DNA from: Curvularia clavata
Taxonomy: Eukaryota
DNA: 64,000 nt
Reading direction: 5' to 3'
Assembly (NCBI GenBank): GCA_023920165.1
Contig: CP089280.1
Span: 372,001 to 436,000, forward strand
The translations under genes and the position numbers were made by a program. The notes beneath the pieces were generated by a model that saw only the letters and a program-made list of their open reading frames with translations, was not told the origin of the DNA and did not search any database. This document shows, piece by piece, positions 27,059 through 30,384 of this stretch (position 1 is its first letter; the number at the start of each line of letters is the position of its first letter).

Positions 27059-28764
27059 TTACCGCATCGTTGTACCCAGATTACTGTTTTGCAGCAGCAG
27101 AGCCAGCTGATCCGGCGGATAGCCTAAAAATACGGGCCCGTTGAACACCATCTGAGGTATCATCCTCGGGCCTGTTGACTCTCCATGCTGCTCTGTATGC
27201 TGCCGCTGCGGCGAGGGTTCGGCGGGTGGCACCTTGGCCGTCGTGGCTCCCGGCGGCGACGACGGGGGTACTGCAGCTTGGGTTGCTTGATGCTGTTCGT
27301 GCGCTTGGTCCATCATAGCGCGATGATCGAATGGGCACTTTGCCGTGGTTTGCGGCGTCTCGCCGACTGGTCGTCCTGTATCCAGTGGAAGCTGTGGCGA
27401 TGCCGTCGGGACAGAGCCGACTGACGACGAGCTCTCTGCGTTGGTGTATTTTGCCGGAATCGATATACCCCAGGGTCTACTAGGAGACTCGCCTACCCTG
27501 ACTTCCTTCAGTGGACGGTCAAAATGTGCTGTCCTAGTCTCGTCCATTGCGTGGTCCTCTGATGGTTCCTCGGGCGTTGGAGTGCCATCATGGAGACTCG
27601 CCGAGACAGCAGTAGCCCAATTCTGAACCTTGGTGTCTGCTCTGGCGGCGGCAACGTGGTTAGGTTCAGCCTCCGGCTCTTCGTCTATCGCATCTTCAGG
27701 ATCCTCGGGCAGCCAGGCTTGGTGCTTTTGACCTAAGCCTTGGATCATGTTGACCAGATTGCCATACTTGCGATCCAACTGTGCAATGCTCTCCTGGTTA
27801 CTTTGGAAACGTGTAATGCAAACTTCATGACTCCTGGGCAGCTCATGTTTATGTTTCTCAAAATATTCTGCAACCTCCTCAGGGTTATGCTGATCGAGGA
27901 AGCGGATGGGACAGACAGCCGCAGAGCCAGATGCAGCTACCGAGGCAGTCAACGAGGCAGGTTTATTGCTACATATCTCGGCGCGGATAGGATCGGCGAA
28001 TGAAGGTCGTTTTGATCTACGACCACGCAGACTGAGGCGCGATGTTGAGCTTCGCGGTGTAGCAAGCGGGCTGCCTCTACCACTTCCAGACGCGAAAGGA
28101 CAAGCTAGCTTACTTGGCGTTCCAGCAACTGTGAAGTCTTTTTCAAGAGGTGAAGGGGCTCTATTGCTCTGGGTCTCAGGTAGCGGGGTCGGTACATCTG
28201 CGGATGGGCCGCTCCATATTTTTACACTTGAAGTATTTTCAGGGGCACGTAGTTGGGCAGCAGCCTCCTCGGCCTTCTGGATGACCAGTGCCCGGCTCTT
28301 TCGCTCTACATCGTCGCTATGTGCTAATTGCTCCACCAAATTCACAGTCATATGTGGTTGTTCGTCCCCAATCCGCTCAAGCTCTTGCAGAAAAGTGAGA
28401 TGATCTTGCGACAACGTATCCGGTGCAAACCGTTTCAAGAGGTCTAGATACTGGTGGATGTCAGTTTGGGTCTTTCAGAATAGTGGTACGCTGAGACGTG
28501 AGAAGATGTCCGGATCAGGTCATGCTGTGGTTGTTTTCTGTCAAAGCCGCGAGAGCAGCTGCAGGTCTAGAGCTAAAGTGTATCATCATGGAAGGGGGAG
28601 GGCTAATAGAGATTGTCGCGTACCTGTTGCTTAGCCCATGAGAGCTTGGTTTCTACCTGCTTTTGCTGATCAAACAGAGCCTGGTATTCTCCGCTCAGAG
28701 CTGTGAAACCTTCCACGAGCTGCTCAGCGAGCGCTGTGACGTTGCGCTGAGCCTCGTCAGCCAT
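27059..28764 (-). CDS. Conserved-looking fungal hypothetical protein with N-terminal coiled coil and Cys-Pro motifs; 173-nt intron 28451-28623
   Basis: MADEAQRNV...LSWAKQQ|YLDLLKRF joined by a GTACGC...ACTGAC...CCAG intron. Ordered core CPIRFLDQHNPEEVAEYFEKHKHELPRSHEVC...LDRKYGNLVNMIQGLG. Confidence 0.8.
28512..28592 (-). ncRNA. Intronic box C/D snoRNA with 18S rRNA guide
   Basis: Box C ATGATGA (28589-28583), guide TTAGCTCTAGA (28576-28566), D'-like CTGC, internal hairpin and box D CTGA (28518-28515), about 50 nt from the branch point. Confidence 0.8.
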
Positions 28765-29197
28765 AGCGCAGTTAGTACAAGGATGAAATGGTTGATGATT
28801 ATGTTGTGCGTATAGAAAGCAGGAAAGCCCAGCCTTGATGACGCGGCAATGAGGCTCGCGGCTGGGAAAAATAAGAGATGGACGGAACTTCGGCAAGGAT
28901 TGCAGAGTCGGAAGAAGCGGCTGCCCGCGCCACGCTTAGTCATCGCTACCAGCCACTCACCTCGGAAGAGGCACCCAAGCCGGATGCTGAGGAGGCGCGT
29001 CAGGGTGCACTGCGCCTTGGACCTCTTACGTAGCATCTTTTCTTTAACTACCAGTCCTATCCAACATGATACCCTAATATACAAACCCCTATTGTCTAGC
29101 GCAGCTCTAAGAACGTCTAGCAGCAACCACGTCACAACGACCCTGAAATTCCAAAGTTCCTGAACAGCCGACGCCTAATATCTCAACAATATTTACA

Positions 29198-30384
29198 ATG
29201 GGATCAATCCACGACTCTCGTATACACAAGTGGTTCGCAACCTCGCCTCCGGTCGCATGGACAGTGAGACAGTTACGGGAAATTCTCATTGGGTCCCTTA
29301 AGCAAGGTCCCATCCCGCAACATGTGGCATTTGTCATGGATGGGAACAGGCGATTTGCCCGGAATCACCACATTGAGACTGTAGAAGGGCACAACCTGGG
29401 CTTTGAATCACTGGCTAGGGTATGGGGAATCAACAATGGCCTTTCATTTCTGGAGCCATGCTAATTTCTTCTTTCAGATCCTCGAGGTATGCTACAAGAC
29501 TGGAGTCAAAGTTGTGACAATCTACGCGTTCAGCATAGAAAACTTCAAGCGGTCGAAGCACGAGGTAGATGCGCTCATGTCAATGGCCAAGGTGAAGCTG
29601 CAACAGCTGGCCGAACACGGAGCATTACTAGACCGTTACGGAGCATCCGTTCGCGTGTTGGGTCAGCGCGAGCTTGTTCAACCAGACGTGCTTATGGCTG
29701 TTGACAAGGCCGTAGCCATGACCGCCCACAACAAAAAGTATACAACCGCAATCACTGCAGGTACCCGTGCTAACCGTCAACAGGGCCGTGCTGAATGTAT
29801 GCTTCCCCTACACGTCTCGCCACGAGATCACCACGGCCGTCATGAAGACCGTCGAGACGTACAGCACCCCTATGCATAATTTGTCTACTCCATCAAAACG
29901 CGCCTTTTCAGAATCACACATTACACAGCATATCCGGAAGCAAATGTTGGAGGAAGACATAGAAGGTGCACTTGAACAGGTCGAGTCGCGCCCGGCGTCA
30001 CCATTTGCAAAAGAAGCAGCCCCAACAGAAGACGGCCGGTCTTCATCGACCTCGACAGCCATTAACCCGTCCGACAAGGATGATTCGCAGAATGAGCCTA
30101 CGTTTTTGGATCCCGAGTCAATCAGTGCGCAGACGCTGAACGACAACATGATGACGGCGGACGCTCCACCGCTAGACTTGCTCATCCGCACTTCTGGCGT
30201 CAAGCGACTCAGCGACTTTATGTTGTGGCAGGCTCATGAGAACACGTCAATTGTGTTCCTGAAGTGTCTCTGGCCCGAGTTTGATCTTTGGCAGTTCCTA
30301 CCAGTCCTAGTAGAATGGCAGTGGCAGCAGAAGAAACTGCAGGAGGAGCAGCAGCGCGTTCGTGGGCGTTCCAAGACGGAGTAA
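29198..30384 (+). CDS. RER2: cis-prenyltransferase (dehydrodolichyl diphosphate synthase catalytic subunit); introns 29420-29477, 29738-29783
   Basis: PQHVAFVMDGNRRFAR, GH..GF, YAFSIENFKR, DLLIRTSGVKRLSDFMLWQ and LWPEF. Confidence 0.94.

Follow-up and report, generated by a model that had tools for sequence, protein, structure and literature searches.

Two small nucleolar RNAs (snoRNAs) of the box C/D class, both encoded in introns of filamentous fungi, are the closest described relatives of the element reported here, which lies on the minus strand of a 64,000-nucleotide (nt) stretch of Curvularia clavata DNA (assembly GCA_023920165.1, contig CP089280.1, positions 372,001 to 436,000 of the forward strand). 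The whole 64-kilobase (kb) stretch is called the window, and positions are counted from its first letter. The first relative, Nc CD15 of Neurospora crassa, was listed as an intronic RNA of 73 nt with the method codes C and N. Its target was listed as 18S-Am159, predicted, with a D′ guide of 11/0 base pairs (bp), and the homolog entries of that list named none for S. pombe, S. cerevisiae, Arabidopsis or human (Liu 2009, PMC2780460). Its sequence in Additional file 1 of the same work (GenBank EU780939; Liu 2009, PMC2780460) contains ...GUGAUGA-UUC-UUAGCUCUAGA-U-CUGC-CAGCUGC... The second relative, Afu-199 of Aspergillus fumigatus (AM921939), was represented by 26 clones, with a complementary DNA (cDNA) of 79 nt and a northern blot size of 80 nt. 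It was placed in the sense orientation in intron 1 of Afu7g02320 and published as an orphan (Jochl 2008, PMC2377427).

The locus in the window was confirmed as a box C/D snoRNA within an intron of 173 nt, at ~28594–28512 on the minus strand. It is very probably the Curvularia (Pleosporales) ortholog of Nc CD15 and Afu-199, functional as an intron-encoded box C/D snoRNA and equipped with a D′ guide for 18S-A159. Its parts are as follows.

28512..28594, minus strand: box C/D snoRNA, about 80 nt, recognized with Rfam RF01501 and family model R1
28583..28589, minus strand: C box AUGAUGA, read from the sequence and followed by the spacer UACACU
28566..28576, minus strand: D′ guide UUAGCUCUAGA, 11 nt, which pairs with 18S 156–166 and is followed by one spacer C
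28561..28564, minus strand: D′ box CUGC, a degenerate CUGA, in a register shared with the orthologs; Nc CD15 also has CUGC
28545..28560, minus strand: internal stem-loop AGCUGC ucuc GCGGCU between D′ and C′, supported by covariation
about 28537..28543, minus strand: divergent C′ box UGACAGA, with a nearly invariant terminal GA
28519..28535, minus strand: D spacer (the "D guide") ...AACAACCACAGCAUGAC, without a conserved target
28515..28518, minus strand: D box CUGA, read from the sequence

A preliminary description of this DNA had given the boxes, the guide and the hairpin in this order, and every element it listed was found on the minus strand. Its proposal of an intronic box C/D snoRNA also held, with the boxes present, the intron spliced and a family model matched. 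The layout comprised a RUGAUGA-type C box near the 5′ end, a CUGA D box near the 3′ end and an internal C′/D′ motif (CUGC plus UGACAGA) that was divergent, yet fixed in register in 66 distinct orthologs. The D spacer was A/C-rich, and its end, ...CCACAGCAUGAC, stood directly before the D box CUGA.

The window shared with Nc CD15 the type of C box, the identical 11-nt D′ guide, the one-nt spacer, the CUGC D′ box, the (C)AGCUGC start of the stem and the intronic position. The two differed in the C′ box (GUGGAGA in Nc CD15 vs. UGACAGA in the window), in length (73 vs. about 80 nt) and in the D spacer, which in Nc CD15 is the unrelated ACAACUUCUAAUGU with a transfer RNA (tRNA)-Thr target proposed by Liu 2009. 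Afu-199 resembled the window in the guide, stem and box order, all shared with the RF01501 model, in its length of about 80 nt and in its sense position in intron 1 of a host gene whose function is unknown. In contrast, the Rfam consensus has CAGG as D′ and a D guide, caUGUAUUAU-CUGA, that was absent from the window. The guide UUAGCUCUAGA was identical in the window, Nc CD15 and the Rfam Afu_199 consensus. By our own reading, Afu-199 and Nc CD15 would belong to a single family whose guide for 18S-A159 is conserved. The novelty implied by the preliminary description had to be given up, because the RNA and its predicted target had already been published as Nc CD15 (Liu 2009) and the Aspergillus member is RF01501, Afu-199.

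No match was returned over the whole 64-kb window by Rfam at its gathering thresholds. A sensitive search of 301 nt gave a full-length match to RF01501 (Afu_199) at 28512–28593 with 35.2 bits and an E of 7e-5, which lies below the gathering cut-off of 45. When the same model was set against 20 orthologous loci, six matched at E ≤0.1 with 33.2–50.4 bits, and only one of them (L010, 50.4 bits) passed the cut-off. Since only six of 20 orthologous loci matched and one passed, this indicated that the RF01501 model is narrow rather than that the RNA is unrelated. A covariance model of 61 metagenome orthologs, R1, built without the window, the three sequences nearest to it and a truncated copy, found a single site in the window, at 28510–28594, with 74.8 bits and an E of about 4e-13. 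The runner-up reached 8.8 bits (E 3.7). The guide 11-mer alone, with at most one mismatch, was not beyond chance in 64 kb, as 41 of 100 shuffles gave at least one match. The whole element is well beyond chance in the window.

The orthologs came from a scan of metagenome contigs with a pattern of the C-box core TGATGA, a gap, the guide and YCNG, which gave 109 loci. Eight of them (L001, L011, L091, L003, L050, L070, L107, and L076) were chance matches by inspection and showed neither a snoRNA layout nor a host homolog. The 101 remaining loci and the window made up 66 distinct sequences with the full layout. Free observations in this set were limited to letters 2 and 4 of D′, the stem and C′, together with the D spacer and its D box, and only Nc CD15 and the Rfam consensus were independent of the pattern. 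The C box was ATGATGA in 43 of the distinct sequences, GTGATGA in 22 and CTGATGA in one, and the D′ box was CTGG (27), CTGC (19), CTGT (15), CTGA (3), CAGT (1) or CCGC (1). Thus CUGN stood at the equivalent register in 64 of 66, with a perfect CUGA in three, which bore out the earlier assumption that CUGC is D′. A CUGA D box was present at the expected distance in all 66, 69–86 nt from the start of the C box. G58 and A59 of the C′ box were conserved at ≥90% in alignment A1. In the same alignment the stem between D′ and C′ covaried: 83.7% of cells were paired and 27 cells were altered on both sides, a result equalled by none of 500 shuffles and approached by slid registers only up to 58.3%.

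The intron and the gene that carry the snoRNA were delimited as given here.

28451..28623, minus strand: host intron 1, 173 nt, GT..AG (GTACGC...ACTGAC...CAG), with the spliced joint 28450/28624
27059..28764, minus strand: host gene, with exon 1 at 28764–28624 (47 codons, ATG at 28764) and exon 2 at 28450–27059

The joint between 28450 and 28624, which skips exactly 173 nt, was present in contigs of four out of four sequencing runs from four studies. As the exact skip recurred in transcript-like contigs of every run, the intron is real. It leaves 33 nt ahead of the C box and 64 nt past the D box, and the candidate branch A, at 28461, lies 54 nt past the D box. In run X1, one contig joined 28435 to 28624 with 15 other letters between them; it probably came from a related organism with another start of exon 2, rather than from an alternative splice site.

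The same host accompanied the snoRNA across the family. Among the 64 family loci with ≥600 nt downstream, 63 had a host homolog on the same strand, with identities of 29%–91% in the high-scoring segment pairs, and L006 was the sole exception. In the 19 loci with placeable exon ends, exon 1 and exon 2 flanked the snoRNA, the C box lay 32–71 nt past a GT (median 36; 33 in the window) and the D box lay 62–70 nt before exon 2 or an AG (median 65; 64 in the window). The Neurospora-like locus L018, which has the Nc CD15 D spacer, and L010, which passes the Afu_199 cut-off, were both located in this host, and the pairing of snoRNA and host therefore predates the split of the classes. Host identity across the family was tested on the metagenome loci, and Afu7g02320 is a putative ortholog of the host gene.

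The element in L006 (1949–2033, minus strand) was followed by 2027 nt of downstream flank with no detectable host homolog. It may be a relocated copy or may have a very divergent host.

The ribosomal RNA (rRNA) used for the target search was eukaryotic ribosomal DNA (rDNA) contaminating prokaryote assemblies, in which 18S, 5.8S and 25S were delimited with Rfam, and the complete fungal 18S of L140 was used for numbering. The D′ guide formed 11 Watson-Crick pairs with 18S 156–166 of L140 and L143, using guide positions 2–12 counted from D′. The fifth nucleotide upstream of D′ faced 18S A159 (A159/A160 in L140/L143), the A of UCU[A]GAGC. That A had been named in the preliminary description from the +5 rule and corresponds to A159 in fungal 18S once CUGC is accepted as D′. 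Bases 154, 161 and 167 of the L140 18S are A, A and U, which fits the assignments of Neurospora CD17 and CD32. The matching human 18S positions are presumably A159, A166, and U172.

Liu 2009 (PMC2780460) lists Nc CD32 as the guide for Am161 and Um167 and Nc CD17 as the guide for Am154, and lists them as homologs of vertebrate U44 (SNORD44) and U45 (SNORD45). Their methylation targets lie within the same 14-nt stretch of 18S as A159. However, they are separate snoRNAs with other target nucleotides, and A159 has no vertebrate, plant or yeast counterpart listed. The earlier statement that the predicted A is neither vertebrate site was therefore correct, as A159 differs from Am161, Um167, and Am154.

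Two other assignments of the D′ guide were considered and rejected. Identity with SNORD44 or SNORD45 was dismissed, for position 5 faces A159, A161 would need AYCU as the D′ box, and Neurospora has CD32 and CD17 as separate genes. A pairing with 25S position 1145 (L140:3827–5108; ...CGU[A]GAGUUAAGGUG) reached 13 bp with two GU pairs, starting from position 4. It was rejected because it needs the spacer CAC, which is not conserved, and leaves the conserved UAGA end unpaired, and it is regarded as fortuitous.

Fifty contigs of prokaryote genome assemblies or metagenome-assembled genomes (L110–L159) carried eukaryotic 18S rDNA. Many of them, filed as Streptomyces, Nocardia, Micromonospora and others, had a single fungal 18S type in common, which marks them as contaminants. 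The large-subunit rRNA gene of L143 contained a group I intron.

Several observations weigh against a functional A159 guide at this locus. The intron part 28474–28607 had no contig cover, although this carries no information on the small RNA, none of the four runs was recorded as RNA, and in C. clavata the ~80-nt RNA is predicted from the sequence. The Rfam score was below the cut-off, and the D′ box lacked its final A. No terminal stem was found: the flanks CCUUCC and UCCGG were unpaired in register and formed no stem in the minimum-free-energy fold, and by inspection the orthologs likewise had none. Such a stem is common in intronic snoRNAs and not obligatory. For the letters fixed by the scan pattern (TGATGA, the guide, and both C and G in D′), conservation is unmeasurable from the ortholog set. 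The rRNA reference consisted of contaminant contigs of fungi other than C. clavata, with a complete 25S only from a distant fungus. In the literature on mapped methylation in filamentous fungi, no A159 measurement was found for any fungus, and in the list of Liu 2009 (PMC2780460) the A159 methylation is only predicted.

Part of this evidence, namely the sub-threshold Rfam score, the degenerate D′ and C′ boxes, the lack of a terminal stem and the purely genomic record of the RNA, together with a fold no more stable than shuffles (z = +1.23), would also agree with a non-functional relic or a chance look-alike in an ordinary intron. That explanation is extremely improbable. It is opposed by the 74.8-bit match to the family model, by boxes, guide, covarying stem and intron position that were kept where the host proteins are only 29–40% identical, and by expressed members documented in two other classes. 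An orthologous, working snoRNA remains the reading we prefer.

The D spacer differed in sequence between clades among the 66 distinct orthologs. The motif AACAACCAC stood at a constant distance from C′ but not from D, and the D-proximal letters drifted among the nearest relatives of the window (CAGCAUGAC, CAGCAUAAC, CAGCAUAGC, CAGCAUAC, and UAGCAUGU). The D guide had no significant match in the 18S, 5.8S and 5′ part of the 25S of L140 or in the full rDNA of L143. Its best duplex, at 18S-1531, had 10 Watson-Crick pairs, one GU pair and one mismatch and was equalled by 53 of 200 shuffled guides. Within the 64-kb window it matched only itself, and 92 of 100 shuffles did as well; no tRNA genes were found there. 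Complements of AACAACCAC of 7 or more letters were absent from the L140 rDNA including its spacers. CTGTGGT was present in the L143 18S at 147, and by our estimate a 5–7-nt match of AACAACCAC to 18S 146–152 is within chance. For the tRNA-directed regions of the Neurospora set, Canzler 2018 (section 26) reported no conserved pairing to canonical targets. The lack of a significant rRNA match, of any other match in the window and of a tRNA gene in the window, in line with Canzler 2018, supported the orphan status of the D guide, and the view in the preliminary description that no target could be assigned to it was upheld.

These results bear on the idea of a true double guide, whose D guide would address 5′-GUCAUGCUGUGG-3′, with U opposite position 5, in a small nuclear RNA, a tRNA, a variable 25S segment or a messenger RNA. 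The D spacers of L032 and L098 were identical to that of the window, and the tRNA-Thr target proposed for Nc CD15, whose D guide is a different one (Liu 2009, PMC2780460), also counts in its favour. The target search was confined to sampled fungal rDNA and the 64-kb window. However, the letters nearest box D differed among close relatives, the rRNA match was not significant, neither another match nor a tRNA gene was found in the window, and the pairing of the Neurospora tRNA-directed regions to canonical targets is not conserved according to Canzler 2018. A double guide of this kind is very unlikely.

One clade (L026, L033, L039, L058, and L106) shared a well-conserved D spacer, UUUCAAAUUGAC(U/A)-CUGA, which was different from the others and may be a genuine lineage-specific second guide. 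No complements of this spacer of 9–13 nt were found in the rDNA loci tested.

A relation of the D spacer to the 18S segment beside the D′ target appeared in part of the family. The end of the Rfam Afu_199 consensus, caUGUAUUAU-CUGA, complements 18S 164–172 with U167 at position 5, and U167 is the site of the Nc CD32 D′ guide. The CAGCAUG of the window complements 18S 169–175 in the 18S of the L123 type. The nucleotide facing position 5 of the D guide varied by lineage (166, 169, 171, and others). It was possible that the D spacer makes extra base-pairing of the kind described in yeast (van Nues 2011, PMC3116282), with CAGCAUG here and CAUGUAU elsewhere pairing with 18S at about 166–175 and steadying the 11-bp D′ duplex, without a methylation of its own. 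In the account of van Nues 2011 (PMC3116282), extra pairing comprises 4–11 bp, often lies in the second guide region left unused, at a distance from D or D′, and occurs in snoRNAs with the shortest guide duplexes. The snR75-type snoRNAs described there resemble the present element in combining one active guide with a short rRNA complementarity in the unused second guide region (PMC3116282). They differ in that the pairing here is only statistical, and its register and sequence are not conserved in the clade of the window.

The counts gave some weight to extra pairing. CAUGUAU, the complement of 18S 166–172, occurred in 13 of the 66 distinct orthologs and ranked second in frequency among all 18S 7-mers. 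When only the 13 D-proximal nt were used, the top six among 546 rRNA windows (71 nt each, 18S and 25S) all fell at 18S 111–231, with 16–18 of 66 sequences vs. 10 for the next region. The register, counted from box D, varied, which suits a pairing element better than a guide. On the other side, the orthologs are related and their counts are thereby inflated, the hypothesis was post hoc, and the full 20-nt spacer ranked 18S 551–671 above 111–231. Moreover, the stretch drifts in the clade of the window, where it gives 6–7 bp at best and 7 only with G175 as in L123, and many Sordariomycete-like members showed nothing. We regard extra pairing as a tentative and rather unlikely explanation. The D spacer is not a conserved methylation guide, and it is most likely the vestige of a second guide that addressed the neighbouring 18S segment and has since drifted.

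Following established snoRNA biology, intron 1 would be spliced out and debranched, exonucleases would trim it down to the RNA, and Snu13, Nop56, Nop58, and Nop1, the core proteins, would bind at the C/D and C′/D′ motifs and protect it. The 11-nt D′ guide is predicted from its complementarity to pair with 18S 156–166, with A159 facing the fifth nucleotide upstream of D′; Nop1 would there 2′-O-methylate A159 (Neurospora numbering). From the D spacer, no more than a few additional base pairs next to the D′ target would be expected. We also speculated that the family arose as a double guide, directed at A159 through D′ and at U167 or a nearby nucleotide through D, as the Aspergillus consensus suggests. 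In most lineages, that of the window included, the second guide would then have become a register-free extra base-pairing that clamps the 18S 3′ of the minimal 11-bp duplex, with the whole arrangement confined to intron 1 of a single gene of unknown function ever since Pezizomycotina arose. This history is unlikely as a whole. If it were true, the family would offer a natural series of a methylation guide turning into an accessory pairing element.

The locus is a Dothideomycete member of a Pezizomycotina-specific snoRNA family and matters little beyond annotation. It shows that RF01501 is too narrow to find this locus and that a snoRNA was kept across classes in one host intron, 62–70 nt from the 3′ splice site. 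The A159 methylation, whose site was predicted in 2009, would be fungus-specific. The variable D spacer is a natural series for how unused guides decay or turn into extra base-pairing.

The host gene encodes a conserved protein of 510 amino acids. Its exon-2 protein matched a C. clavata entry of NCBI, labelled "hypothetical protein", at 100% identity, and its relatives numbered hundreds, in Pleosporales and beyond, all without a functional name. A Pfam search of the host protein gave no family, and a protein atlas search returned only unnamed Ascomycota clusters. The absence of a Pfam family and the label "hypothetical protein" in the sources agreed with the earlier remark that the host has no obvious role in ribosome biogenesis. 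Several Cys-Pro motifs (CPFASG, CPIRF, and KCPFDH) were seen in the protein, which has no known domain. For Afu7g02320, the host of Afu-199, a published table records enrichment with the monothiol glutaredoxin GrxD and describes the protein as unknown (PMC6762210). This enrichment and the Cys-Pro motifs hint at a possible iron-sulfur or glutaredoxin partnership of the host protein family.

A cis-prenyltransferase gene of the dehydrodolichyl diphosphate synthase type (29147–30384, plus strand; PF01255), apparently interrupted by introns, was the neighbour of the host gene in head-to-head orientation.

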